Assembly: GCA_965661285.1 (NCBI GenBank)
Contig: CBFIDD010000001.1
Span: 224,001 to 288,000, forward strand
DNA from: Poseidonia sp.
GTDB taxonomy: Archaea > Thermoplasmatota > Poseidoniia > Poseidoniales > Poseidoniaceae
Length of the DNA stretch: 64,000 bases
Direction of reading: 5' to 3'
Below are positions 12,008-63,226 of the stretch, piece after piece. A program made the position numbers and the translations under genes. Position 1 is the stretch's first letter. Each line of letters starts with the position of its first letter. Under the pieces are notes generated by a model. The model made no database searches. It saw nothing but the letters and a program-made list of their open reading frames with translations, and was not told the DNA's origin.

Positions 12008-15000
12008 ATGAGAACCAGAGTTTTTGCCTTGGTGGCCTTGTTGTTGCTCACGTCACTGTCAGCCGTTCTTGACCAGCGTTCACCGTTCGTCCTTGACCAA
12101 GATAAGGTGTCAATGGAGTCCGGAAACAACAGCACGGGATGTGGGTACAACACCACCTACTTTTCGGTCTATGGCTCCTATGCCCCCTTCCCAGTCTACG
12201 ATGGTGATACCCTCAACACAACCGTTTCAACCAGCTGCAACATGCTGAACCAAACCATGACGGCCTCCTACGGTCTCTCGAACTCGACCACCTACCTTGC
12301 CAGTGGTAACTGGAGTTGGACAGCGACGACTCTCAGTGATAACCTCTCGTTTGAGGTGGCCAACATCCCTGCGGGGACCTATGTTCTCACGGTAGACGTT
12401 TACTACGGTTCGAATTATACCTCCCTGACGAGTTACAACACCACCATCACCGTGTTGACAAGTAACAACAGCGGGGGGGGCACCGGTTGTGGGTATGATG
12501 TGAACAACACCATGCTGATGGCGTACGCTGGGATGTACATGTACGACAACGACCCGTTCACCTCCTGGATCAGCACCTCTTGCGATCTCATCGGCACCCC
12601 GATGCTTATCACGGTGAACATCACGAACACATCGGGCACCATGGCCTCGACCAACTTCACCTACAATGGTTCAACCACCGGCTTCAGCGGCAACTTCAAC
12701 CTGTCCGCTGGCACCTTGAGTGCGGGTAACTACTCCTTCGCAGCCTCGCTATACTATTACCACAACACATCTGGATGGACTCATGTTGAAACGGACAGCA
12801 CCACCATCACGGTGTTGGCGTACACCTCTACCTCCTGCGGATTCCAAGCCTCCTCGGCCAGCGTCTTCGCCTACTCCACTTACGGCGGCTACGATGTCGG
12901 TGAAGACTTCGAAGGTGTCATCGCAACCTACTGTGCCATCTACAACGCCACCATGATGCTCGACTGGACGCTTCATGACGATGATAACAACCAGTCCGTT
13001 GACTCAGGCACCTACAATTGGACAGCACAGCAAACTCAGGAAGTGCACTATGTCAACTCAACTGCGCTCTCGACTGCTACAGTTGGCAACTATTCCTTCC
13101 ACGTTGAGTATTCCTGGTATAACAACTCCTCGATGAGCGTTGAGGTATTGGACACAGACAGCGACAGCTTCTGGGTCTACAACTACACCAGCGGTGGCGG
13201 CAACCAATCCAGCGGTTGTGGCAGCGACCCCGTGCATGCAACAGTCTATGCGTACTCCGACTTCTACGCCTACGACCTCGGCGAGGATTTCGACGGAACC
13301 ATCTCCACGTACTGTGCCATGACCAACGAAAGCATGATGCTTGATTGGGTGCTTTACGACGATGACAACAACCAATCCATCGATTCGGGTTCCTTTAACT
13401 GGACGGCCCAGCTAACCAGTGAGCAGCACAATGTTACGTCCACTTCGCTTGCCACGGCTGCAGAAGGAAACTACTCCTTCACCGTTGAATTTTCCTGGTA
13501 CAACACCTCGTCAATGGCCTGGGAGGTGCTCGATAGCGACACTGACGGCTTCTTTGTGATGAACATGAGCAGCGGTGGCGGCAACCACAGCAGCGGTCCT
13601 TCCTGCTCCGTTTACGCATGGTCCGACTATTACTGGTTCTCCGTTGGAGACAATTTTACCGGTGAAGTGGACTCGTATTGTTCCTTGACCAACGAGACGC
13701 TGATGATCGAGTGGGCCATCCTCAACACCGTCACCAACATGACGGTGGATGCAGGAAACATAAGCTGGACCACCACCATGTTCTCCGAGACGCAAAACGT
13801 CTCCTCCACGGCTCTCGCCAACCAAAACGCTGGCAACTACTCCTTCGCAGTCATGCTCTCGTGGTACAACACCTCGTCAATGGCATGGGAACTTCTTGAC
13901 AGCGACAGTGATCCGTTCTCCATCTACAGCGGGAGCACCGGCGGTGGCGGCAACCACAGCACAGGATGTGGAAGCGACCTTGCCTACACCATGGTGATGG
14001 CCTACGCGTCCTCCTCCTACAACGTCGGCGACACCCTCTATGGCGCCATCGACACCTACTGCCCGGTCAGCGGTGAAGCCTTCATGGTGGACTGGTCGGT
14101 TTATTCGTGGGACGCCGGTTACAACCTGACCCAAAGTACCTTTTTGTGGACGGCCAACAACAGCACCCACTACCACAATGTCGAAGTCACCAACCTGTCA
14201 GAAGGCAACTGGTCCCTCATTGCAACCCTGTACCACTACAACACCTCGAGCATGAGCTATGACGGAATTGACCAATCCATGGCAAACTTCTCGGTGTTCA
14301 ACACAACGCAACCCTCCATCGACGGGGTTGTGGCGGCTAGCATGACAGAATCGAATTACGCCAGCGGCGACACCGTTTCGTGGTTCATCGAAAGTTCCGA
14401 ACTTGTCATGGGCGAGGACTACCACCTCGAGTGGGCCGTCGTTGAAATCATGAGCAACACCACCGTTGCTACTGGCAACGCTTCGTGGACTGCCTACAAC
14501 AACATGAGTGGCGAACAAGGCAACCTTTCCGGTCTTTCCGATGGCATGTACTGCCTCGATGCTTCCCTGTACCAGCAGGTGGACACATACGCCTACTGGG
14601 TGGACTACGACTACGCTTGCTTCAACGTGGGCAGCAGCACCTCCGGTAATCACAGCGACGCCTTCATGAACATCGACTTCGACTACCAGATCACTCAAAT
14701 TGATGACGACACCATCGGTCTCACTTACACCGTCAACAACTCAGGTGACTGGGCGGGCAACTTCTACTACCAAGCCTATCTGAACCCTGGCGATATCATC
14801 GTTGACCACGTTTATGGCAACGTGAGCATCAATGGCATGGGCGTCCACACCGACAGCGTGACCTACGACATCGACGAACTTACGGACGGTGCAGAGGTTT
14901 GCATTGAAATGGCCTTTGTGAACATCAACGGCACCACGGAAGCAGAAGGCAACGAGTGCCTCACCATCGACATCGATAATGGCTCCAATACAGGCAATGA

Positions 15001-27965: not shown

Positions 27966-29095
27966 TTACGCTCACGCTCTCATGTTCCAATCCACAATGC
28001 GGAAGCGCCATGCGACTGCCGTTCACAACCCACTCGGTTTTTCCGAACATCGAAAACCGTTGCGCAGTGTGTAATCAAGGCGTCCTCATCATTTCACAGA
28101 TTGAAAATGAGGACCCTCCTCTTGCAACCACGGCAGCCATCCATGCAGAAGCACCCGCCAGCGATGTCTCATTGAACGAGAGTCTTGGAGGAAACCGCAT
28201 TTTCACAGCATTCCAAAACCGATTGGCGCCTCTTGTCGTCATCCTTCAACTCATTGATGAACTGAGTGAGGAAACCGGAGACGTTGAGATTTCAGCCCTG
28301 GTTGAAGCCTTCAAAGAGCGCTCGGGATTCTTGCGAAAGCACCTCTCCGACCGTCTCGAGCACCCGCTTGGCGTCAAGCGAGGCCAGAAACTGTCGGACG
28401 GCTTTCCGGCCGTTGACCGCCCTGGCCCATTGAACATCACCCTTCGAAACTACATCGGTTGCGATGAAAAACGATTGTTGGTAGGCCGTGGGCTCATCCA
28501 GGAGTTTGACCTGGTGACCATTGTTGACGATACCAAACTCAAGCTGACAGAGAAAGCAAAGCCGTTCCTCAAACTTCCTCACCTCGCTGACAAAATTGAG
28601 ACCACACAGGAGTTGGTAGCGTTCTACTCCAATCCAGTTCTACCGAAGTACTACGAAGAAGCGTTTGCGTTCGAACTCGCTCATGCAGTTGGAACGTTAG
28701 CTCCCGATCAGCACGATTGGATGATGCACATTCTCGGAAAAATCATCGCTTGCGAACACAAGAACGGTTGGGATTCCAACGCCTATGCTGCCGATGAAAC
28801 GCAACTCGCCAGTGTTGGGAAGGCTCATGCGCGGTGGAGGCTCATCGACCACACGTTCGGAACCTTGTATGAGAAATTCGAAGCCCAGGCGGTGCGAAAG
28901 GCTCACCATGACCCTGAGGGACAAGCCAGGAGTCGTCATGAGAGCCACGTCAATGGGAAGCTTGGCAGCGTTTTGAGTCATCTCAAGGAACTCGGGTTCA
29001 TTGTACCCGTGGCTGTGGGGAACACGAAGAATTTCGCAGCAACGGAGCGTGGGCACAGATACCAAGATTCAATGTCCAAAGGAGTTGAAAAGTGA
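27962..29095 (+). CDS. Zinc-ribbon plus winged-helix-like hypothetical protein
   Basis: Extending upstream of ATG 28010 to CTG 27962 gives CSNPQC...CAVC; C-terminal LSHLKELGFI...ATERG is wHTH-like. Confidence 0.65.
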   Translation: MITLTLSCSNPQCGSAMRLPFTTHSVFPNIENRCAVCNQGVLIISQIENEDPPLATTAAIHAEAPASDVSLNESLGGNRIFTAFQNRLAPLVVILQLIDELSEETGDVEISALVEAFKERSGFLRKHLSDRLEHPLGVKRGQKLSDGFPAVDRPGPLNITLRNYIGCDEKRLLVGRGLIQEFDLVTIVDDTKLKLTEKAKPFLKLPHLADKIETTQELVAFYSNPVLPKYYEEAFAFELAHAVGTLAPDQHDWMMHILGKIIACEHKNGWDSNAYAADETQLASVGKAHARWRLIDHTFGTLYEKFEAQAVRKAHHDPEGQARSRHESHVNGKLGSVLSHLKELGFIVPVAVGNTKNFAATERGHRYQDSMSKGVEK

Positions 29096-29147
29096 TGATT
29101 TTTAGAACCCAAGGTAGATATACCTGTTTTGAAAGTTAGGTGGATGC

Positions 29148-31280
29148 ATGACGATTGAGTGGGTTTTTGATAAAGCGGGAGCGAACATGACCAAGCACCG
29201 TGACATGGAGGAAGGAATCGTCCAAGCCACAAGCACGATGACTCGCCTCGAGATTCTAGCTCGGGAAAACGAACAAAATCTTGTGGACCATCCTGCAGAC
29301 AACACAAAGCCCACACGATGCACCTATGAGGTGAAAAAACTCTCAGGGTCTGTCAAAGATGATTTTTATGCCACACTATGTATGAGTGATTATGGACCTC
29401 ACATAGATGGGGCAATAAAACCGCCCATTGCTGATTTCCCTGTTGCAACGAACCTTGTTTCAGATACCAGTGAAGACCTAAATCTTTTGATAATCCGCCA
29501 CGACAATGGAATTGGTTTACTCGGTGGTGAATTCATTGATGAGGGGACGGTCGACAAAAATTTTCGGGCGCTCGTGAAATCTTACGGACTTAATGAGAAG
29601 GGCGCAGATGGCGGCGGAGGTTCTCACGGTGTTGGGAAAAACGTTTACTGGCAGTGGTCCAAACACGGAATTGTCCTTTTTTATTCAAGCCTGTCAAAAG
29701 ATTACAAGGGCCACACTCGCAGATTCATTGGTACAGGCCGAGTGAAGGTGGCTCACATGGAGAAGGTAGGAGGGCCAACTTACCACCCCTATGGCCTCCT
29801 TGGAACAAAAACTACTCATGGAGGCGTTGATGCCTGTGTTTCGTTGTATGATGATGACGCAGATACCCTTGCGAAAAAACTCGGGCTAAATGTAAGGTCT
29901 CCAACTGAACCAGGTACAACCATCGTCATTGTAGGATTCAGGGACCCATTGGATCCAACAAAAGATTGGGTTGATGAAGCAATCAATGGAGAAACAACCT
30001 TGCGATTTTCGTCTGAGAAGAGTTGGTTTCCCGCAAAACTATCTAATGCACTCGAGGTATCTTATGTTGACGCATCAGGACCAGAAAACTGGGACCCAAC
30101 CGTAGGTAAAAGTTTTCGATTGTTGAAATGGTTGGAAAAGGGCCTTGATGAGGAGAAAGGGGCGGATGAATTAGTCCCCGGTCGCCCAAAACGTTGTCCT
30201 ACAACTTTGAAGAGAATTGAACTCGACTTGTCCATCCCAAGAGATTACCCAGGAAACAGCACAACTGGAGTCTTACGGTCAAAGGCCGTGCTGGCACTGA
30301 TGATTGTTGATGATGAAGAATTCGACCAACCGAACCCAGAACTTGGAGATGACAAATGGGGGACTACGGCGTGTATCAGACACACGGGCATGGTGGTCAC
30401 ATACAAACCATTCATTCAAAAACCTACAAAGTTTTATCGAGGCGTCCTGTTAGTTGGTAAGAGCGTTGATACTTTTGACAAAAAACTCCGGGGCACGCTC
30501 AATGCTGATGCACAGAAATTGGCAGAAGAAATGATGAAGTTCAGTGAGCCCGCAGTGCATGATGACTGGCAACCCAAAAATTTCAGCGCATACGTCGCAG
30601 GAAACGGTTCACTAGAATCTGGGTACAGAGCAGTCGCATCCGTTGGTGAAAGAAGAATTTCAACCTTCCTCAAAGATGTTGAGAAAGCAACAAGAGAAGC
30701 ACTTGGCCTTCTCGCACCACCGAAGGCCAAGAAATCTGCTGACTGGGCAGATTTGTCAAAAGAACTCGATTTTGGCTCAAGCAACTCTGATTCTGGAGGC
30801 AGGATCATCAGCATTACATCTTCAAAGGTGGTCAAAACTGATGGAAATAAAGCTAAACTTTCATTCAATGTTGATGTGCCTAGATTGGGGCCTGCAAACG
30901 GATGGAATTCGAAGACCACACATTGGTGGCTCAAAATCGTACCCAAACTGTTGTGGCCAAACGGGAAAAAGCAGACACCTCCCACAGAGATTGTCTGTAT
31001 TGACTTTGCTAATTTGCTGGATGATGCAAACAACTCAACATGGAAGAACCTAGCAAAGGTGAATTATGCTACTCGCAAAGCGGAGTGGAAGAAGAAAGCC
31101 AGCCGTCAAGCAAAAGCCATGAAAATTGATGAATGGGTTGGCAAGGTGAACCACTTGGAAAAGGCAGAAGTATTGACAAAAAACATCTCGTTGTCTTTCA
31201 AGAACATTGAAATTGACTTAACAGGATATGAGAATGCTATGTTGGTATTGTCTATCGAAGCTGGAGAGGTGAGACCATGA
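29148..31280 (+). CDS. GHKL-family ATPase-domain protein
   Basis: Bergerat motifs RENEQNLVD, HDNGIGL, GGGSHGVGK, PGTTIVI. Confidence 0.75.
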   Translation: MTIEWVFDKAGANMTKHRDMEEGIVQATSTMTRLEILARENEQNLVDHPADNTKPTRCTYEVKKLSGSVKDDFYATLCMSDYGPHIDGAIKPPIADFPVATNLVSDTSEDLNLLIIRHDNGIGLLGGEFIDEGTVDKNFRALVKSYGLNEKGADGGGGSHGVGKNVYWQWSKHGIVLFYSSLSKDYKGHTRRFIGTGRVKVAHMEKVGGPTYHPYGLLGTKTTHGGVDACVSLYDDDADTLAKKLGLNVRSPTEPGTTIVIVGFRDPLDPTKDWVDEAINGETTLRFSSEKSWFPAKLSNALEVSYVDASGPENWDPTVGKSFRLLKWLEKGLDEEKGADELVPGRPKRCPTTLKRIELDLSIPRDYPGNSTTGVLRSKAVLALMIVDDEEFDQPNPELGDDKWGTTACIRHTGMVVTYKPFIQKPTKFYRGVLLVGKSVDTFDKKLRGTLNADAQKLAEEMMKFSEPAVHDDWQPKNFSAYVAGNGSLESGYRAVASVGERRISTFLKDVEKATREALGLLAPPKAKKSADWADLSKELDFGSSNSDSGGRIISITSSKVVKTDGNKAKLSFNVDVPRLGPANGWNSKTTHWWLKIVPKLLWPNGKKQTPPTEIVCIDFANLLDDANNSTWKNLAKVNYATRKAEWKKKASRQAKAMKIDEWVGKVNHLEKAEVLTKNISLSFKNIEIDLTGYENAMLVLSIEAGEVRP

Positions 31281-32347
31281 GCAACACATCAAAAACACCT
31301 GCAATTATGCTGCCACACGAAACCGGAGAAATTACACTTACAAAGGCAATTGTTGAATTCAAAGATACATCCGGGAATCCTTGTTGGGACAAATATGAGT
31401 GGGTTAATTCTGATGATGATTCTCCCCGAGTGGATGCTCGCGAGTCGTATCCAAACTATTCAGAAGATCAACTCTATTCACCCGTTGATACCTGCGAGGT
31501 TTCCTTGACATTTTCTGCTGATACGGAGGATTGTCTCATGGATGTTGACGATGAATTCCAATATTGGGTCAAAATTATTAGCAGTGCATCAAAGTACCAG
31601 ATTGTGAGGCCTGGAGTAGAATCCAAGCGAGGGAAATATAATACCACGATGTCCGTCACCCTACTCCGAGATGAGTTTCTGAACCTCAAAGGACTTGTAG
31701 AGTGTGAGATTATCCTAATTAAATCAGGAGACGGCACGTCCGTCGGTACGAATCCTGTCAAGACTACCAGCGGAGTTTTTGCGACCTCTGACGGAGCAAT
31801 TCTTGCTACTTCCGATTCAGATTCAACGTTACAAATTGTGTTGGACGACCCATCCGCCCCGACATCAAAGGGAATGGAACTTGAATGGATTGACATGAGC
31901 GATACTCCAAACGCACAATATGTCTTGAATTATTTGAATTGTGAAAATCCCAATGAAACGAACTTCAAAATCACACTCCAATTGAATGACAAGTCTCACC
32001 TATTTTCACTTCGAAATGCACTTGGTGGCAGAAAAAAAGATCTGAAGAAATTGGTCATCAGCCAAATATCTTCAACTGTGTCAATGAATCTTCTCTATGA
32101 CCTCTGCAATACTCATGAAGCATTTATCCAATCCGTAATTGATGGTACAGCAACGCCAGTGGATGATTCTCTTCTAGAGTTCTGTATATCTGTTTTAACA
32201 GGTGTGGCAAAATCAATTAGCATGGATTACGAAGAGATTTTTTCGGCATTCGTGGGAGACATAGACAAGGTCAGAGAAATAGCACTCAAGATTCAAAATT
32301 CCAAAGCAATGGATGCTCTGTTGACTGAATTGGTGAGTTCTTTTTGA
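31277..32347 (+). CDS. Hypothetical protein, translationally coupled to the GHKL gene
   Basis: ATGA overlap and GGAGAGGTGA SD; acidic 356-aa ORF. Confidence 0.8.
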   Translation: MSNTSKTPAIMLPHETGEITLTKAIVEFKDTSGNPCWDKYEWVNSDDDSPRVDARESYPNYSEDQLYSPVDTCEVSLTFSADTEDCLMDVDDEFQYWVKIISSASKYQIVRPGVESKRGKYNTTMSVTLLRDEFLNLKGLVECEIILIKSGDGTSVGTNPVKTTSGVFATSDGAILATSDSDSTLQIVLDDPSAPTSKGMELEWIDMSDTPNAQYVLNYLNCENPNETNFKITLQLNDKSHLFSLRNALGGRKKDLKKLVISQISSTVSMNLLYDLCNTHEAFIQSVIDGTATPVDDSLLEFCISVLTGVAKSISMDYEEIFSAFVGDIDKVREIALKIQNSKAMDALLTELVSSF

Positions 32348-32356
32348 GGTGAAAAT

Positions 32357-33229
32357 ATGGCATTAGTATCAGTAAAAAAATTGCAATTGCAAAAAGACAG
32401 CACAGCCTCGCGCTCAAAGTTTGTTGAGGGCAAGATCAAACCATTGCACGACCCAACCAAAATATGGGCGAATCCCTTGTGGCCTCTTCCGACCAACGAC
32501 GAGGTTGTAGAAGTTGACGGAGTGGAATACAATGAGAATGAAGTTATCAAACTGCTTGACAAAGCGGGTGGTGACTTGAAAAAACTAATTCCTCTATCAA
32601 CAACGGAAGAGGCTGCAAGAGTCGCACTAGAAGCGGCAATAGAAGCGCGGAAAATTGCACCATCTGGGGCGAACAAAAAAGCTGCTAAGGCAGTGGAAGC
32701 AAAGGCAAAGAAAGTACAGGAAAAGGCGACTGAGGATAAAAATAGTGCCAAAATAAAGATTGAAACAAAACTTGGAATTGCGCTTCATGAATACTTGAAA
32801 GACCTGCCAAGGAAGATTCTCTTTGACAACGCTTTTTGGTTCTATCTTTTTTGGAAATCACCAATTTATGGCGTCCATCGATATGAGACTTGGGACCCTC
32901 ATGAAAATCAAATAAAGAGCGAGGTCAGAATGTACGGAGGGTGGACAAGAGCGAGTATTCCTGCTGCCTACCTTTCGTATTATCTCGCCAACGAATGCGG
33001 AATTTCTGATGCGGACTACAAGAAGAAGAGATGTGGTGCTCGGTTGCGGATGTGGATTCTTGACGAGTCGCCTCTCATCTCAAACAAACTAAGAAAGAGT
33101 TTTGTATCCGCCGTCATAGGCGGGAAAAACCTTGATGACACATGGAAAGCCTTGTTTCAAAAATTGGGCGCCCTTGATGTTGACACACTGACTCAAGCCC
33201 AGATTGACACTCTGATTGCAGGGCTGTGA
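32357..33229 (+). CDS. Hypothetical protein, DUF6339-like
   Basis: GAGGTGA SD; LHEYLKDLP...DNAFWFYL resembles my recollection of the DUF6339 motif (unverified). Confidence 0.55.
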   Translation: MALVSVKKLQLQKDSTASRSKFVEGKIKPLHDPTKIWANPLWPLPTNDEVVEVDGVEYNENEVIKLLDKAGGDLKKLIPLSTTEEAARVALEAAIEARKIAPSGANKKAAKAVEAKAKKVQEKATEDKNSAKIKIETKLGIALHEYLKDLPRKILFDNAFWFYLFWKSPIYGVHRYETWDPHENQIKSEVRMYGGWTRASIPAAYLSYYLANECGISDADYKKKRCGARLRMWILDESPLISNKLRKSFVSAVIGGKNLDDTWKALFQKLGALDVDTLTQAQIDTLIAGL

Positions 33230-33231
33230 TG

Positions 33232-34386
33232 TCAGGATTCTCCTAAGAGAATTATGGCAATGTGCTTGGCCATAAGAGGTGGCACGGCGTTGCCAAGCAT
33301 CTTGTTCAGATTGGTCCGTTTCTGATTGCGGAAGTCGAAGAAGTCCGGGAAGGATTGCACCCTGGCCGCCTCTCGAACAGTGAGGCAGCGTGCCAGCTTC
33401 GGGTGGGTGAACCGACCTCGGCCGTTACACGAGTAGCCGGTCGTGATGGTGGGGGCCGGTCGATCCCAATACATTCGCCCGTACACCGCAGGGTAGGTAT
33501 TGCCGCTTGGCCCGTGTTCGTCGTACTTCTGATGACATTCGGGTCGAAGCTCGGGAGGAAGTTCGTACTCATCGTTCTCAATGAGGTAATCCATACGAGC
33601 CTGGTTCACTTCCTTGGCTGTAGAGGCTGAATTGAGCACATCGTTTTCATCATACACCTCAAGGAGATCCCCAATCGCCCAAGATATGGGCCGCTCTTCA
33701 ATCCCCTGTCGGTGCTGGAATGACGAAAGATTGAGCGTCGAAACCCTGCTGGCGATTGAGAAATGTCGCTTTCGCATTTGTGGCACGCCAACATTTCGGC
33801 CGTCAATCAGGCCTTCAACGGTAGAATAACCCTCAGTCTCCAGCCAATTTTTCGTCTCGCTTACGACGTTTTGTTGCGCCCTTCGAACACCAGCAACATT
33901 CTCAATAATGGCGTATTCTGGCTTGAGTATCTCAATCATTCGAGCCATTCGGAGGTAGAGGAGGTTTCGTTCGTCTGTTCCTCGGGTGTGATTGTTCAGG
34001 TTGGAATTGCCTTGACAAGGGGGGCCACCAACGATGAGATTGATCTCACCAACCGATTCCATGAATTTACGTTCAGATTCGGTCGGAGGTTGCCCGCGTT
34101 CGCCGTCAATCACCGTCTCAATAGGCTCCGATCGAATTTCAACACCGGTGAAATTTTTTGCATAGACCTCTGTTGCGGCCGTGAAAATGTCCCATGCAAT
34201 GACGGGTTGCAATTGGATGTTCAGATCCAAACACGCTGCTTGTACGCCCATGCTGATGCCGCCACACCCAGAAAAAAGGTCAATCATTCGGAGAGTCCGC
34301 TGCGGTAAAGAGCGCAATCCAGGGCGGCGTTTTCTTCGGAGCCACTTCCAGTCTTGGTCCATCTTGGGCCGCTGAACTGACTCCAT
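33232..34386 (-). CDS. dcm: DNA (cytosine-5) methyltransferase
   Basis: DLFSGCGG, GGPPCQG, ENV, PQMRKRHF, GNAVPP. Confidence 0.95.
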   Translation of the reverse strand: MESVQRPKMDQDWKWLRRKRRPGLRSLPQRTLRMIDLFSGCGGISMGVQAACLDLNIQLQPVIAWDIFTAATEVYAKNFTGVEIRSEPIETVIDGERGQPPTESERKFMESVGEINLIVGGPPCQGNSNLNNHTRGTDERNLLYLRMARMIEILKPEYAIIENVAGVRRAQQNVVSETKNWLETEGYSTVEGLIDGRNVGVPQMRKRHFSIASRVSTLNLSSFQHRQGIEERPISWAIGDLLEVYDENDVLNSASTAKEVNQARMDYLIENDEYELPPELRPECHQKYDEHGPSGNTYPAVYGRMYWDRPAPTITTGYSCNGRGRFTHPKLARCLTVREAARVQSFPDFFDFRNQKRTNLNKMLGNAVPPLMAKHIAIILLGES

Positions 34387-37166: not shown

Positions 37167-37230
37167 GGTGGCCCTGGCCGGAATTGAACCGGCTCCTCTG
37201 CTCGCGCAGCGTGCACCTTACACCAAGGGC
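37167..37230 (-). ncRNA. tRNA-like element with truncated anticodon arm
   Basis: GCCCT/AGGGC acceptor-like stem, D-arm GTGT-AAGGT-GCAC, CTGC-GCGA-GCAG hairpin, perfect T-arm GCCGG-TTCAATT-CCGGC. Confidence 0.6.
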
Positions 37231-37301
37231 GGGCCGTAGCTCCTCCACCATTCCTCAACCCGAGACACCTGCGTTCGCTTGCCCGTGTGCGAACACCGAC
37301 C

Positions 37302-38846
37302 TCAGTCGGCGCACGAGCCATCGTCAGGGAGGAATTGGAATTGATGCGGCATGGTCGTAACGTCCGTGTAATCGTCCTCGTCCAAGCACACGATGGTCAT
37401 CTCCATCGGCGCTCTGCCCATCATCGGTGGCAGGCAGTCGTAGTACGCCACAACGGCCCTCATCACTTCGCCAAGCGAAGCCGTGCCGTGGGATACGGTC
37501 ACGATGTGCCTGACCTGCATCGATGTGATGCTCGGATACGCCCTGCTGTAGGGTTGTGATTTGGCCAACTCGAGCATCGTTTTGGCGAGCTGCGGCGTGG
37601 CATCCTCGCCCGACCACTTCAGCCTCTTGACGGGATTGCTCATCCACGGCGCTGGCGACTGCAACTCCAGCGTTTGACCAAGCCATCTTGCACACCTTCC
37701 GACGACCTTCTGTCTGAGACTTTCCCTGACCGCCAGCACGGTGTTGGGGCCATGGAGGGCAGGGGCAAGCCTAAGCAGGTCACCGTGGACGATGTGGAGC
37801 TTGAACGCTTCACCCAACAGCCTGTAGGTCCTTTTTGGAAACCCGCCGAGCAAGAGTGAAGGATGGTCGAGCAACCACCTCAGGTAGTCGGCGTAAGCGC
37901 CCGGCGGCCACGCATGCAACGGAGGTGTGGGCCCGAGAAAGGCGGGACCCGGCTCGTGTTCGTCGTGAAACCTTACCCAGTCCCTCATCCACTGTTCATG
38001 TGTCGGTGCATCGGGATGAACGGGCGGGGTGGGTTCGCTGCTGAGCAGGTCGGCCACCGCTTCGGGCGACATCGACACTTCGGGCATGGTCGTCCAAAAC
38101 CAAGGCTGCATGGCGTCGTCCCAGTCTTTCTGCGCGAGGGGACCTTCCACACCGTGATGCACCTCAAACACGCTGGCGCTGTGGGTTTGCATGTTGCCGT
38201 AGAAGTCGGGCGACATCCACTCAACGGGCCCTTTGTTCACGAGCATGGAACCGTTCTCCAGGTGAAGCACGGCCTCACCGCTTGAGGAAAACCACGGATG
38301 TTCCCCGTCAAGGAAATGGGCGTGCTTGAGGTCGAGCACCACGAGACCGCCTTCCCTGATCTTGTGCACGTAAGCACCGATGAGGTGGGGAAACGCTCTG
38401 TCGTCGCCCGTGCTGTGCGGGTCCAACCACTCGAGCCAGTCCACGTAGAGGATGTCCACGGGCGGCGAGGCGGTCAGTTTCGAGAAGGCCTCGTGTTGAA
38501 TGTGAACCTGCCAGTGGGGTGTGGAAAGCGCCGCCTTCCTGTAGACGGCGTGGCCCTGCGACGTGTCTGAAATCCTTTGCCAGGTCGCCATCCCCGCCTC
38601 GTTGGCGTTGATGCCCCAACCATCGGGCGTGTACTCGCTGTACTCCACCACGACATGGATGAAGGGATGACCTGCATCGCTGACCAAACCAAAACTGGCG
38701 TGGTGGTGCATGGCGGCTGCGGGATGGACGATGACCAGCGGCCTTCCCTCAGGCGGCTCGATGGGCAAACCGATGCCAGCGGGCGGCCCGTAAGCCACGC
38801 ACCCACCGAATCCTTGGGGTGCTCTTCTGCTAGCTGCCATGCTCAT
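37302..38846 (-). CDS. Hypothetical protein: degenerate methyltransferase-like N-half, macrodomain-like C-terminus
   Basis: TGATG overlap with upstream stop; VDILYVD...KIREGGLVVLD; LHIVHGDL...TIVCLDEDDY; 22/22 Arg codons AGR. Confidence 0.7.
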   Translation of the reverse strand: MSMAASRRAPQGFGGCVAYGPPAGIGLPIEPPEGRPLVIVHPAAAMHHHASFGLVSDAGHPFIHVVVEYSEYTPDGWGINANEAGMATWQRISDTSQGHAVYRKAALSTPHWQVHIQHEAFSKLTASPPVDILYVDWLEWLDPHSTGDDRAFPHLIGAYVHKIREGGLVVLDLKHAHFLDGEHPWFSSSGEAVLHLENGSMLVNKGPVEWMSPDFYGNMQTHSASVFEVHHGVEGPLAQKDWDDAMQPWFWTTMPEVSMSPEAVADLLSSEPTPPVHPDAPTHEQWMRDWVRFHDEHEPGPAFLGPTPPLHAWPPGAYADYLRWLLDHPSLLLGGFPKRTYRLLGEAFKLHIVHGDLLRLAPALHGPNTVLAVRESLRQKVVGRCARWLGQTLELQSPAPWMSNPVKRLKWSGEDATPQLAKTMLELAKSQPYSRAYPSITSMQVRHIVTVSHGTASLGEVMRAVVAYYDCLPPMMGRAPMEMTIVCLDEDDYTDVTTMPHQFQFLPDDGSCAD

Positions 38847-39394
38847 CAGATGCACCTCGGATGATAGAGCGGGACAACCCTGAAGATTCTCTTGGTTTGC
38901 CTCTCAAGTCTGCTGTACGCCTCAGCCTTGCACACACCGCCTGACGTAGCCGACTTGGCCGTGTCGTAGATGGTATCACCGTGCAAGGTGATGATGTGAG
39001 CCGTGCACAACTTCCCCGAAGGTTGCGGGTCGGAAGGCGGGTCCTTGGAGTAGAAGCAGAGGAAGAAGAGGTCGTCGTAGGTCACCAATTCGTCCACGAA
39101 GTATTCCAGTCTCCTGACATCGTTGTTGCAATAGGCCAACTGCATCCCGTAGGGCTTTAGCGCCTCCGACCATGTGTGGGGTGCCTGTGAATTGGTCACC
39201 GCCTTGAAGTCCTCTGGCGTGGTGTTCGCTCCCGTGGCGTTGGCCACCATCGACAGCGTCGTGGCGACGCACGAAGGACCGACCTGCTTGATGTGCTCAA
39301 TGGTCACGTCGCCAAAGAAGGGGCCGTGGGGTTCGCCGTGTCTCTCGCTGTACCACAATGGTGCGGAGGGGTTCGGTCTCCAAGTGACGGTCAT
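38846..39394 (-). CDS. Peptidase C39-like (papain-fold) protein
   Basis: QVGPSCVATTLSMV (Q-x4-C), AHIITL (His), IYDT (Asp); GGAGG SD and ATGA overlap; 9/9 Arg codons AGR. Confidence 0.75.
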   Translation of the reverse strand: MTVTWRPNPSAPLWYSERHGEPHGPFFGDVTIEHIKQVGPSCVATTLSMVANATGANTTPEDFKAVTNSQAPHTWSEALKPYGMQLAYCNNDVRRLEYFVDELVTYDDLFFLCFYSKDPPSDPQPSGKLCTAHIITLHGDTIYDTAKSATSGGVCKAEAYSRLERQTKRIFRVVPLYHPRCI

Positions 39395-39618
39395 TCCCAT
39401 TCCTCCCTGAAAGCGTCGTCGAACTCTTGCCACTGCTTTTCGTCGTCGGGCAAGGGTTGTTCGGTCAGGGCTTTCATGATGCAATCTGGGCACGAGCACG
39501 GTCTCTCGATGTACTCGCTCATGTCTTGCACCCTCAGTTTGGTCAACTCGTTCTGGAGCCTGAAAAACTCCATCACCAGCATCATCAGTTTCGTCCATTC
39601 GTTCTCATTTTTCTTCAT
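39391..39618 (-). CDS. Small protein with CxCxxC motif
   Basis: AAGGAG SD; stop overlaps next start; 4/4 Arg codons AGR. Confidence 0.7.
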   Translation of the reverse strand: MKKNENEWTKLMMLVMEFFRLQNELTKLRVQDMSEYIERPCSCPDCIMKALTEQPLPDDEKQWQEFDDAFREEWE

Positions 39619-40456: not shown

Positions 40457-40501
40457 AGGTCTCGCTCCTGTGTTGCGTTTATGCACCGCCGTGCGTCGAA
40501 T

Positions 40502-40576
40502 TGGCTGGGGCACCGGGATTCGAACCCGGGTCAAAGGTCTCGCAAACCAATATGCTCTCCACTACACCATGCCCCA
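40502..40576 (-). tRNA. tRNA-Arg(GCG), CCA encoded, two U-U mismatches in anticodon stem
   Basis: TGGGGCA/TGCCCCA acceptor, loop TT-GCG-AG, T-arm CCGGG-TTCGAAT-CCCGG, A20, G73, CCA. Confidence 0.85.
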
Positions 40577-40588
40577 ATGGTCGGGAAC

Positions 40589-40663
40589 TGGCAGAGGCAC
40601 CCGGATTCGAACCGGGGTCCAGGGATCCGAAGCCCCTGATGCTATCCGCTACACCATGCCTCC
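40589..40663 (-). tRNA. tRNA-Arg(TCG), CCA encoded
   Basis: GGAGGCA/TGCCTCT acceptor, AGGGG-CTTCGGA-TCCCT anticodon arm, canonical T-arm, A20, G73, CCA. Confidence 0.92.
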
Positions 40664-40666
40664 TTG

Positions 40667-40812
40667 CAGTTCCCAACGAAACGGCGGTTGCACTCAGGGT
40701 GTCAAACGCCGGTTCGCTTGTGCCGTGAATCGTTGGATCAACGGCGATGTCGGGAGGGTCGCTTGGTGTCATTTCGGACGCTGTTGTGTTCATCCATCAT
40801 GCTCGACCCTCC
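40667..40812 (-). promoter_or_regulatory. Putative attenuator-like structured leader
   Basis: Alternative helices 40736-45:40722-31, 40722-37:40671-85 and 40667-77:40580-90; SD 40804-12 complementary to 40753-61. Confidence 0.6.
40738..40800 (-). CDS. Putative Arg-sensing leader peptide MMDEHNSVRNDTKRPSRHRR
   Basis: GGAGG 7 nt before ATG; Arg codons CGA, CGA, CGA, CGC, CGT, four of them in the last 7 codons. Confidence 0.7.
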   Translation of the reverse strand: MMDEHNSVRNDTKRPSRHRR

Positions 40813-40839: not shown

Positions 40840-40847
40840 TATTTAAA
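40840..40847 (-). promoter_or_regulatory. TATA box of the leader/tRNA-Arg operon
   Basis: TTTAAATA on the minus strand, ~28 nt upstream of the leader SD. Confidence 0.65.
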
Positions 40848-40997: not shown

Positions 40998-43691
40998 ATG
41001 ACAACTGGAATGTCACCCCGAAACATGCTGATTGCCGGAATCGTCTTGGTTCTGCTGAACGTTGCTGCGCTTGCTCCATTGGCCACCGGTGCCGTTGAAG
41101 ACGTGGTGGACGAAACCTTCGAAGATTACTCCAAGGACGCCGTCTGCGCCAACGATGACTGTACCGAAGCCGAGGAAGACTGGGCTTCGTCCACGGCCCA
41201 GCGCGACTACTACGCGTGGGACGTCACCAACCTCGCTGAGGTCATGGGCGGTGCGGCACCGATCACCGAAAAGGTCGGACCCTTCACCTACGACATCACC
41301 ACCACCCGCACCATCAACAACTACGATGCAAATGCCGGTGAATTGACCTACAACGCCGTGAAGACCTTCGAGTGCGCTGCCGACAGCGCCGTCTCCTGCG
41401 ACACCGAGGTCACCCAACTCAACATCCTCTTCCAGGCCCAAGTGATCGGTGCGACCGGTATGGCCATGGGCGGCATCATGGACTTGACCAAGGTCGGGTT
41501 CGCCGTTCAAATGGTCCTTCAGGACATGAACACCACGCAGGCCGGCACCGCCAGTGTGGGCGACATGTGCATGGCCGACATGAACGGCGACGGAACGCCC
41601 GATGCGATTCCATGCCACTCTTGGGCCAACGGTGGACAAGCTGCACTCGCAGTGTCCGAAACCGGCATGGGCATCAAGATGATGAACAACGATGACACTC
41701 TCAACACCACCATGGATTCGGGTGATGCCTTTTCCGAGGGCAGCCTCGACGCCGCCATGACCGGCACGTCCCACCCAGCCGACCCGAACTTCAACATCTC
41801 GTTGATGACGCCGCTCGGCTCTGTGGCCTTCATGGGCCTGGGCGCACCAGAGACGCTAATCTCTGACGTGTTCGCTGACCCTTCCAATTCCACCGTGATG
41901 GCACGAGCCACCACCTATGGCTATCTTGCGATGGCCGACGCCACCACGCCCGACTTCTACACGACCTTTGTTCGAGACTGGGCCATGTACGCAACGGTGG
42001 GTGCCAGTTTCCAGGCTTACGGCGGCGGCAGCGACGCCAACCTCACGAACAACGACGACCTTGCCATGCGACTCCACAACCTTGTCGGCGTCGACATGAC
42101 CGGCGTGAACGCCGTTGGCCTGATGACCGCTGGCCACATGACCGACACCCCAACGGGGATTGTCGCCACCAACGCTGAGGGCACATCCTTCGGCATGGCC
42201 GCTTTCCTCGGCATGGAAGCCGGTGACGTGATGACCTCCTACAACATGACCGCAGAGCAGTACGGCGCTGTAGCAAGTTGGGTCGGAGGATGGGCCACCT
42301 CCCAATCATCTGCACAACTCGGCCTCCTTGGCGGCGTGGGCACCATGAACGCAGAACAATTTGTGAACCAAACCTTCGGAGGCATGAGCCCCGTTGGCGA
42401 CCCCTACCTCGAGCGCTCACTGAACCTCGGCGGCGCCTGGAGCAGCCTGTACGGCAACGAACCGGTTGACTTGACACAGGAACAATCCGCCAAGATCCTC
42501 TACGACCCCATGATTGGACTGACCACGCGAGGCGGTGCAACCCTGTTCATTTACGGCGAGTTGGCCGGCATGACCCCGCCGATTGACTTCACCACGATGG
42601 AATCCGGCACCCCTATGGTCTGGGACGCAGCCACCATCGGCGCCCTCTACGGCATCGACACCAACGCTGCCACCGCCCTGCGAGCCCTCATCATGGGACC
42701 CATCTACGGCACGACGGATGATTCGTTCGTGCCCGACTACCTCATGTCCACGTTTGGCACGACGCCCTACCTCACGCAATCCTTCAACAACTGGCTCATC
42801 GGCTGGCACGACCCCGTCAACGCCTTCCTCGCCACGGGCAACCCGATGGACATGAGCGTCGGGTGGTCATCGCTTGAAAGCAACGCCACCTACTTTGGTT
42901 CGGGCGGCATCGCTAACGGCGACGGCACCAACTACACGATGTGTACGGGTGAAGTGGCCGGATGCGACAAGGGCGAAACCCTGGCTGAAGACGGTTCAAC
43001 GCAACTTTCGTGGCGCAACGACGCCATGATGGCCGCCACCTACGGCCTCATCATGCCCGAGCCCCTCGTCGGCACCACCGGTGGCTTCCTAACCGGCACC
43101 GAGGACAAGGTTGACGTCAGCGGCTACGTGATTGCGGACGTTGAGCGAACCGGCGACAGCACGCTGAAGGGTATCCCCGTCTATGACTACGAAGCCAAGC
43201 AGGACGCACCCGGACGGAGCATCCAAGCCAACCTCATGGAGACCTTCAGTCTGCTCGACGCCACCCCCGGCGCCCTCCCCGTGTACTTCTCCACGGAGAT
43301 CACCATGCAGGCTGAACAACTCTCCGGCCTCATCATCGCTGGCTCCTCGACCAACACCTTCTACCTTGACAACCGTGCACACACGGACCAAGCCAGCACG
43401 CCAACGATGGACGACCTAGATCCCGTGTTCGAGATTCAGTCCTCCTCGATGATCGAAGACGACGACGCAGAAGAGATGGAAAGCGCCATCGTGCAAAACC
43501 AAAACAGTTTGACCTATTGGACGAACTTTGACTCGTGGATTGACTTCGTCACCCTCCTGTTCTGGGTCGGTGGCATCGCCATGATCGGTATCGGCATGGT
43601 TGGCGCAGCCAACACACCCGCCGAGGACGAAGGCAAGGACTTCTCAGCCTCTGCTGGGGACGAAGCTGCTCCAGAAACTGTTCAAGAGTAG
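40998..43691 (+). CDS. CD36/scavenger-receptor-class-B-like membrane protein
   Basis: TM helices at both termini; WDVTNLAEVMGGAAPITEKVGPFTY, WLIGWHDP, KGIPVYDY resemble CD36-family blocks. Confidence 0.65.
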   Translation: MTTGMSPRNMLIAGIVLVLLNVAALAPLATGAVEDVVDETFEDYSKDAVCANDDCTEAEEDWASSTAQRDYYAWDVTNLAEVMGGAAPITEKVGPFTYDITTTRTINNYDANAGELTYNAVKTFECAADSAVSCDTEVTQLNILFQAQVIGATGMAMGGIMDLTKVGFAVQMVLQDMNTTQAGTASVGDMCMADMNGDGTPDAIPCHSWANGGQAALAVSETGMGIKMMNNDDTLNTTMDSGDAFSEGSLDAAMTGTSHPADPNFNISLMTPLGSVAFMGLGAPETLISDVFADPSNSTVMARATTYGYLAMADATTPDFYTTFVRDWAMYATVGASFQAYGGGSDANLTNNDDLAMRLHNLVGVDMTGVNAVGLMTAGHMTDTPTGIVATNAEGTSFGMAAFLGMEAGDVMTSYNMTAEQYGAVASWVGGWATSQSSAQLGLLGGVGTMNAEQFVNQTFGGMSPVGDPYLERSLNLGGAWSSLYGNEPVDLTQEQSAKILYDPMIGLTTRGGATLFIYGELAGMTPPIDFTTMESGTPMVWDAATIGALYGIDTNAATALRALIMGPIYGTTDDSFVPDYLMSTFGTTPYLTQSFNNWLIGWHDPVNAFLATGNPMDMSVGWSSLESNATYFGSGGIANGDGTNYTMCTGEVAGCDKGETLAEDGSTQLSWRNDAMMAATYGLIMPEPLVGTTGGFLTGTEDKVDVSGYVIADVERTGDSTLKGIPVYDYEAKQDAPGRSIQANLMETFSLLDATPGALPVYFSTEITMQAEQLSGLIIAGSSTNTFYLDNRAHTDQASTPTMDDLDPVFEIQSSSMIEDDDAEEMESAIVQNQNSLTYWTNFDSWIDFVTLLFWVGGIAMIGIGMVGAANTPAEDEGKDFSASAGDEAAPETVQE

Positions 43692-63154: not shown

Positions 63155-63226
63155 GCGGATATGGTGAAGTGGTTATCATCTGAGGTTTCCAACCTTATGT
63201 CGTGGGTTCGACTCCCGCTATCCGCA
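63155..63226 (+). tRNA. tRNA-Gly(TCC), CCA not encoded
   Basis: GCGGATA/TATCCGC acceptor, TGAGG-TTTCCAA-CCTTA anticodon arm, GTGGG-TTCGACT-CCCGC T-arm. Confidence 0.95.

Follow-up and report, generated by a model that had tools for sequence, protein, structure and literature searches.

A leader rich in CGN codons, spare tRNA-Arg genes and CGN-free genes form a candidate rescue operon in Poseidoniales

The two adjacent tRNA-Arg genes in this stretch of a Poseidonia sp. contig are strongly supported as parts of a larger unit, an operon that combines a sensor, accessory tRNAs and protein genes devoid of CGN arginine codons. A first-pass annotation of the window (the whole stretch of 64,000 nucleotides that was analysed) had picked out the pair as atypical tRNAs; these are real accessory tRNAs, but the reason given for their interest was wrong. 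The tRNAs themselves were described correctly, but the annotation overlooked the leader ORF that precedes them, the CGN-free genes that follow and a further RNA that is tRNA-like. The order of the operon is TATA-like box, leader ORF, two tRNAs, four CGN-free genes and an RNA that resembles a tRNA but has no anticodon. At the level of architecture, a conserved operon of sensor, tRNA and codon-free genes is, judged from sequence, very probable. For the combined proposal that this is a rescue operon for the loss of CGN decoding, and that it is triggered by an attack on tRNA-Arg(NCG), we would put the chances at about even. The features of the cassette are the following:

40840..40847, minus strand: TATA-like box, probable archaeal promoter of the cassette, from its sequence and an AT-rich box in homologues
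40808..40812, minus strand: Shine-Dalgarno (SD) sequence of the leader ORF, forming a duplex of -10.6 kcal/mol with the genome's own 16S tail
40738..40800, minus strand: 20-codon leader ORF with five CGN and no AGR codons, ending CGC-CGU-stop
40744-40746, minus strand: anchor CGC of the leader ORF
40682..40691, minus strand: 5' arm of an outer helix around both tRNAs (9 pairs, genus-level)
40667..40674, minus strand: 5' flank of slot 1, which pairs with the first tRNA at its 3' end and with its trailer
40589..40663, minus strand: tRNA-Arg(UCG), slot 1 (ARAGORN and Rfam RF00005); relatives sometimes have ACG
40583..40590, minus strand: 3' arm of the flank helix, covering C75-A76 and the trailer
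40502..40576, minus strand: tRNA-Arg(GCG), slot 2, with a variable anticodon arm (ARAGORN and Rfam RF00005)
40483..40491, minus strand: 3' arm of the outer helix, by eye also complementary to the leader's Arg codons
39635..40456, minus strand: F4, 273 aa, CGN-free with 7 AGR codons; no family, weak UBC/E2/RWD-like fold
39391..39618, minus strand: F5, about 75 aa, CGN-free, with an acidic tail and often a Cys cluster
38846..39394, minus strand: F6, 182 aa, CGN-free with 9 AGR codons; candidate C39-like cysteine peptidase
37302..38846, minus strand: F3, 514 aa, CGN-free with 22 AGR codons; SAM-methyltransferase-like and macrodomain-like domains
about 37172..37300, minus strand: conserved structured RNA with a tRNA-like module at 37172-37229

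The two tRNA genes are separated by 12 nt and score 52.3 bits (UCG copy) and 53.3 bits (GCG copy) against RF00005, well above its gathering cut-off of 29. Arginine tRNAs are recognised by A20 together with C35 and G36; cassette tRNAs have NCG anticodons and, in 143 of 146 cases, an A after the D-loop GG, as required by this identity set. Their D- and T-loop motifs are canonical. The features first reported for the pair are all present: both members finish in discriminator G plus CCA, they have a near-identical 5' segment and A20 in common, the UCG copy has G1-U72 and the GCG copy has U1-A72 and the U27-U43 and U28-U42 mismatches, and the tRNA-Gly at 63155 indeed has no encoded CCA (its 3' end is A-CCT). 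Their accessory status is also borne out. The genome (1.98 Mb, 93% complete) has 46 credible tRNA genes, namely 44 single-copy genes and the cassette pair, with separate core genes for tRNA-Arg(GCG) and tRNA-Arg(UCG) on contigs C5 and C4; moreover, only 16 of the 36 same-genus genomes have the pair, and two others have a divergent form of it. No Ala(CGC) or Pro(CGG) tRNA was called in the genome. The proposed origin by duplication and anticodon change is plausible: among the scored intronless tRNAs of the genome the two are mutual closest relatives (alignment score 53 over 72 nt; runners-up 47 and 45), and in 8 of the 83 slot-1 copies the anticodon is ACG, not UCG.

The suggestion that the pair is special in needing no CCA addition does not stand up, with CCA encoded in 26 of the 46 genomic tRNA genes, both core Arg-NCG counterparts included. 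Among cassette copies, CCA is encoded in 34/75 UCG, 2/8 ACG and 48/63 GCG tRNAs, and among core copies in 20/30 and 14/30. The genome has a class II gene of the CCA/poly(A)-polymerase family, and a search for the archaeal-type CCA enzyme gave no TIGR03671 match (at a genome completeness of 93%). The unusual first base pairs (G1-U72 and U1-A72) vary among genomes and are not conserved. A pattern scan for the U1-A72 stem gave at least 119 matches, nearly all of them Marine Group II-type records, and a cassette protein lies nearby in 104 of the matches listed. A likeness of this stem to bacterial tRNA-Gln was considered and dropped, because position 1 varies and the pattern matches are nearly all of Marine Group II type.

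The F6 gene, used as a marker, was found in 99 of 401 Poseidoniales genomes (21 of the 67 high-quality ones) and in 11 of 26 genera; a search of 237 further genomes of the phylum, outside two families of the order, found no copy. Its occurrence is patchy and island-like. We analysed 96 loci, leaving out eight F6-positive genomes with fragmentary matches alone; 87 loci have one or two tRNA-Arg(NCG) genes, five start near a contig end, and four are orphans. No cassette is a long array of tRNAs for many amino acids, each having one or two tRNA-Arg(NCG) genes and a single one adding Ile(GAU). In that cassette (L094, genome G040), tRNA-Ile(GAU) replaces Arg(UCG) in slot 1, and the leader has two Ile codons and three CGC codons. 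In total there are 75 UCG, 63 GCG and 8 ACG tRNAs. Every one of the 63 slot-2 copies has G34, slot 1 has U34 or A34, and NCU anticodons are absent among the called cassette tRNA-Arg. Between them, the cassette tRNAs (G34 together with U34 or A34) can decode the whole CGN box. Transfer RNAs with A34 are unusual in archaea; the eight ACG cassettes (L035, at 12061-12135, and L036, L111, L112, L118, L119, L135 and L142) fall at four separate places on a quick version of the F6 tree. Two genome bins have two cassette copies each (L040 and L041 in G014; L152 and L153 in G326), which may reflect strain mixing. The cassette is chromosomal and set between ordinary genes, and hence not virus-encoded. 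In the window, a CD36-family gene (40998-43691, plus strand) lies next to the cassette on its upstream side, a position that it keeps constantly in most genomes of genus g1, and a partly low-GC island at 28010-34386 contains a C5 DNA methylase and a PADLOC PDC-M33A-like gene. The presence of a DNA methylase and of PADLOC candidate matches among the neighbours would favour an attack as the trigger of the operon (see below).

The protein genes of the cassette avoid the dominant arginine codons of their host almost completely. In 811 long ORFs of the genome, 22,475 of 24,703 Arg codons (91%) are CGN; F4, F5, F6 and F3 of this window together have 0 CGN and 42 AGA/AGG codons (F5 being counted over 71 of its codons). 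F3 is the only ORF of 1,219 with an AGR share of at least 0.8, and no comparable exclusion was seen in the other codon families tested in 1,290 ORFs. The profile-matched regions of the 95 other loci contain 64 CGN vs. 2,604 AGR codons, with zero CGN at 78 loci. Moreover, 33 of those 64 CGN codons sit in the four orphan F6 genes, which form two lineages, have no cassette tRNAs and use CGN freely. With the orphans left out, the count is 31 CGN vs. 2,589 AGR in 69,351 codons, and the proteins concerned diverge to about 25% identity; the locus counts overstate independence because the genomes are kin. Avoidance of the CG dinucleotide as such is rejected as the cause: cassette genes have 31, 3,991 and 5,215 CG dinucleotides in the three frames, and since CG is kept in the other two frames the avoidance acts at the level of the codon. 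Frameshifts, stops or a truncated F3 occur in cassettes L140 (G065), L132 (G061) and L116 (G208), and the few CGN codons in L140 and L116 perhaps represent decay. A Poseidoniales-like contig in a bacterial bin (L272), probably mis-binned, has one tRNA-Arg(GCG); its leader is of another kind, with CGU three times in tandem, and its F4-like gene has 5 CGN and 7 AGR codons. The pair could in principle be ordinary accessory tRNAs in a horizontally moved island, with an incidental leader and AGR codons inherited from an AGR-rich donor. While some AT-rich islands in the genome do reach AGR shares near 0.5 to 0.6, F3 has 61% G+C and otherwise host-like codon use, the exclusion is near total over the codons counted above, the orphans use CGN, and the leader outdoes all controls (see below), making this explanation very improbable and indeed close to refuted.

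The leader is the second conserved element. The AT-rich box that probably serves as archaeal promoter occupies the same place in homologues, and 16 aligned upstream regions have zero indels across ~145 nt. The leader frame is kept, with no frameshift, in 16/16 same-genus homologues, each of which has an SD-led ORF of 19-21 codons that ends in CGC-CG(U/A) followed by a stop, with the rest of the peptide variable. An interpretation of the conserved flanks as a large noncoding RNA was abandoned in favour of the ORF because the ORF was found and frameshifts are absent. The divergent cassette (G012 and G006) has an unrelated leader of 15 codons with three tandem CGN codons. For a wider comparison, the ORF was chosen blind, by SD strength alone, at 82 cassette loci (five more were left out for their short flanks), and a pass was defined as 10-50 codons with at least two CGN, criteria that were fixed after leaders had been inspected. 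By this measure 77/82 cassettes pass (71/82 in a stricter version), compared to 4/57 (2/57) regions upstream of core tRNAs, 55/820 (13/820) shuffled sequences and 40/299 (13/299) random genes. Among 67 distinct leaders, selected for at least two CGN, CGN makes up 19% of codons vs. 4.6% genome-wide, and CG dinucleotides are distributed over the frames as 258, 27 and 47, vs. 22,475, 32,578 and 72,364 in the genome. CGC is present in 65/67, and the anchor CGC is in frame at several start distances among unrelated leader sequences. An apparently translatable ORF with clustered cognate codons, as in leader-peptide attenuators, thus lies upstream of the operon in nearly all cassettes tested and in few of the controls.

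Leaders are also more structured than their shuffles (median z -2.5, with 47/69 below -2); the anchor codon pairs downstream in 30/69 leaders, and in one clade a consensus hairpin spans the anchor. In a switch test at 70 loci, folding with a masked ribosome footprint gave no consistent change on average relative to unmasked folding. No terminator consisting of a hairpin and U-tract was found on the minus strand from 40847 to 40456 of the window, between leader and tRNAs; archaea may terminate by means other than hairpin and U-tract. The outer helix enclosing both tRNAs is paired in 98.6% of cells with zero two-sided changes, so that covariation does not prove it. The flank helix of slot 1 has two-sided changes at 6/8 pairs in 16 homologues, and for 70 distinct flank pairs its duplex has a median of -13.5 kcal/mol, vs. 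-5.9 kcal/mol for shuffled flanks and -5.8 kcal/mol with partners swapped from other genomes. Such excess pairing was not seen for slot 2 or for core tRNAs. Given the established requirements of RNase P and RNase Z, the flank helix could hold the slot-1 precursor unprocessed.

From this architecture we propose an inducible operon that rescues the cell when CGN decoding is lost, with the two tRNAs as its replacement parts. When host tRNA-Arg(NCG) is lost, ribosomes would stall on the CGN codons of the leader, and stalling would make the structured leader permit read-through, release the first tRNA from its flank helix, or both. The CGN-free proteins would remain translatable and the spare tRNAs would bring decoding back, after which the leader would be cleared again, closing a negative feedback loop. 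The likeliest trigger would be cleavage or modification of tRNA-Arg(NCG) in a conflict with a virus or toxin, and our guess is that the cassette proteins (peptidase-like, methyltransferase plus macrodomain-like, E2-like and, in many relatives, a GNAT) serve to mend the damage or to counter whatever causes it. An attack on tRNA-Arg(NCG) is probably the trigger, as it would account for the spare tRNAs, the variation of their anticodon arms and the patchy distribution. We rejected loss of m1G37 as the trigger, since the usage of Pro, Leu and His codons is normal.

The anticodon arms deserve attention in this respect, the first-pass annotation having suggested that altered arms could evade a nuclease. 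Across 12 genomes of the same genus, 10/17 positions of the GCG anticodon arm are variable in the cassette copy and 0/17 in the core copy; for UCG, in 11 same-genus genomes, the numbers are 8/17 and 0/17. The core GCG loop is identical in 30/30 genomes, and the cassette copy has eight different 37-38 dinucleotides. Compared with the core loop of this genome, the GCG loop differs in 49/63 cassettes, this window included, and is identical in 14/63, while the UCG loop is identical in 38/75, again including this window, and differs in 37/75. These comparisons with the core loops make escape from a nuclease a plausible property of the slot-2 tRNA but a doubtful one of its slot-1 partner. Outside the anticodon arm the cassette tRNAs are variable too, though less densely (4/26 and 7/29 positions), and U33 is missing in 3/63 GCG copies; variation beyond the anticodon arm and the loss of U33 fit relaxed selection as well. 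Anticodon-stem mismatches, found in 38/63 GCG copies, would also suit tRNAs that serve as non-ribosomal arginine donors for cassette enzymes in peptide modification or arginylation, the more so as a peptidase, GNAT and the small peptide-like F5 recall RiPP clusters. We nevertheless regard such a donor role as extremely unlikely: G34 in 63/63 slot-2 copies, U or A in slot 1, no NCU and canonical D- and T-loops all speak for decoding tRNAs, and the CGN exclusion would be left unexplained.

The main rival for the trigger is under-charging, with a toxin borne by the cassette ranking third. Sensor and codon design would be the same, but arginine starvation or an ArgRS inhibitor would empty the overloaded CGN readers while the AGA/AGG readers, which are little used, stay charged, and the operon would serve scavenging or detoxification. 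ArgG reaches the cut-off in 1/401 genomes (a marginal partial match), compared to 14/14 controls, and its absence across the order makes starvation plausible. Demand is also very uneven, with 12,688 CGU+CGC codons resting on one core gene vs. about 1,100 per AGR gene. Elf et al. (2003) reportedly tied selective charging to the choice of codons in leaders and biosynthetic genes. Taken together, the GNAT, peptidase and methyltransferase of the cassettes are reminiscent of microcin C immunity genes. Isoacceptor-selective charging under starvation is established according to work cited in PMC12799730. On the other hand, cassette proteins are at most mildly Arg-poor (3.95% vs. 5.1%), and no transporter or biosynthetic gene was recognised among those scanned. 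HisD is missing from this genome too, and the other codon families tested show no similar design. An extra tRNA would cure the loss of a tRNA, not a lack of arginine, since it supplies none, and the variation in the anticodon arm would be left unexplained. On balance we consider under-charging an unlikely trigger, but one to be taken seriously.

In favour of an attack, Group B magroviruses encode a tRNA-Arg, the anticodon of which is not stated in the passages of PMC5434244 and 10.1101/101196 that describe it. One virus record of 140 kb with terminal repeats (L223, G407) has a PolB closest to that of haloarchaeal tailed viruses (24% identity); its sole tRNA is an Arg(CCG) that has A37 and a D-arm like those of the cassettes. 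In the 37 kb sampled of this candidate virus, 348 of 580 Arg codons are CGN. A search for viral F6 homologues found none, and the one match in a motif scan of viral contigs was without any tRNA and is due to chance. PF13166 was found in 0/401 genomes, and no attacker emerged from these searches.

The cassette proteins give few leads. No family scores above cut-off for F3-F6 of this window in Pfam, NCBIfam or PADLOC; PHROGs has no match for F3, F4 and F6, and in PADLOC 2.0 F3, F4, F5, F6 and GNAT are without a family at E 0.01, so that the cassette does not correspond to a known defence system in that collection. A single marginal PADLOC match (E 0.009) was obtained among the cassette and accessory proteins tested, none of which matched PHROGs. 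F6 is a candidate C39-like cysteine peptidase from its sequence: Cys42 and His133 are invariant, Asp140 is near-invariant, and PF03412 matches one homologue at E 0.002 with 18.4 bits, below the cut-off of 22; a sequence search of the PDB gave no convincing match. The predicted model of F3 (pLDDT 64) resembles a SAM methyltransferase (Z 8.8, rmsd 3.5, 147 aligned) plus a macrodomain (Z 9.7, rmsd 3.2, 129 aligned), with a Foldseek E of about 1e-4, and of its 53 homologues the one with a taxon name is from Poseidoniaceae. The F4 model (pLDDT 82) weakly suggests a UBC/RWD-like fold, with UBC/UEV/RWD proteins making up most of the top 50 structural rows and bacterial BubB in the first (Z 4.5, rmsd 3.5, 101 aligned); this best Z of 4.5 is within the background range. 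There was no usable Atlas match and no BFVD match for F4, no named family among 68 representative matches, of which the one inspected was a repeat artefact, and the F3 and F4 profiles are unrelated to each other.

These proteins bear on a further explanation, in which the cassette is a defence or toxin-antidote module. Either one of its own proteins would disable host tRNA-Arg(NCG), as GNAT might by acting on the charged tRNA, or the leader would guard against viral tampering and trigger effectors; CGN-free coding would keep the module translated and the tRNAs would allow recovery. GNAT toxins acetylate aminoacyl-tRNA, and a CGN-free GNAT family is present in about 25 cassettes; the E2/UBC-like structural matches of F4, headed by BubB, and the patchy, island-like distribution would fit as well. 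Yet GNAT is absent from this cassette and most others, the F4 score is at background level, and the CGN-free ORFs include no recognisable E1 or ubiquitin-like gene. The CGN use and lone Arg(CCG) tRNA of the candidate virus are compatible with such a module but prove nothing, and overall we judge it improbable.

At its 3' end the operon is closed, in cassettes of genera g1 and g13 only, by the tRNA-like RNA, in which a 4-bp stem and tetraloop stand where the anticodon arm would be. Its T-stem covaries, with 11 and 9 two-sided changes in 20 sequences; ARAGORN calls no tRNA here and no Rfam family is above threshold. A bolder reading, to which we give slightly less than an even chance, is an archaeal, translation-coupled sensor of a single codon box: CGN stalling would switch on spare, partly nuclease-resistant tRNAs and CGN-free enzymes for repair or counter-attack, countering an agent that targets tRNA-Arg in a conflict between Poseidoniales and viruses, with the anticodon-less tRNA mimic acting as a decoy or processing signal.

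If true, this would be leader-peptide control in an archaeon that senses one class of tRNA and answers with that same tRNA. In the literature searched (titles and abstract openings, largely open-access), we found no description of the cassette or of an archaeal leader that controls tRNA genes, and no precedent for the feedback design in which the tRNA class sensed is also supplied. The near-total exclusion of the dominant Arg box across the order implies that CGN decoding fails often enough in nature for selection to act, and would point to a tRNA-targeting agent or stress in abundant ocean archaea. The combination of sensor codons, tRNA and codon-free genes also provides a search recipe for similar systems.

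Several known systems have elements in common with the cassette. Ribosome-mediated attenuation by leader peptides is exemplified by the his, trp, thr and pheST leaders of bacteria, which likewise have a short SD-led ORF, clustered cognate codons and a structured leader in front of an operon that answers the shortage. The cassette, in contrast, is archaeal, would read one codon box (CGN) instead of an amino acid, would control tRNA genes, shows no U-tailed terminator in this window, and is followed by genes that exclude the sensed box almost totally. Starvation-insensitive codon choice, as reportedly described by Elf et al., similarly places sensitive codons in the leader and insensitive ones in the response genes; there it is a bias, whereas the exclusion here is near absolute, the response genes are non-biosynthetic and spare tRNAs are included. 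Bacterial Y RNAs and mascRNA are tRNA mimics which, like the 3' RNA, have D- and T-like arms and no anticodon loop, but the 3' RNA has a short acceptor stem, and none of the cassette proteins scanned was recognisable as Ro60. Spare tRNAs with anticodon loops unlike those of the host are also known from phages, where they evade anticodon nucleases (PMC10264068). The cassette differs from these in being chromosomal and sensor-linked, with a UCG loop that is often unchanged and no nuclease candidate found. Finally, the cryptic trn operon (L-array) of Anabaena PCC 7120 contains accessory tRNAs proposed as a reserve for translational stress (PMC8421152). According to that paper, the L-array comprises dozens of tRNAs under promoter-repeat control, is co-regulated with rtcB, and has no codon match with stress genes; the cassette, on the other hand, combines one or two tRNAs of a single codon box with a leader ORF and strict codon exclusion.
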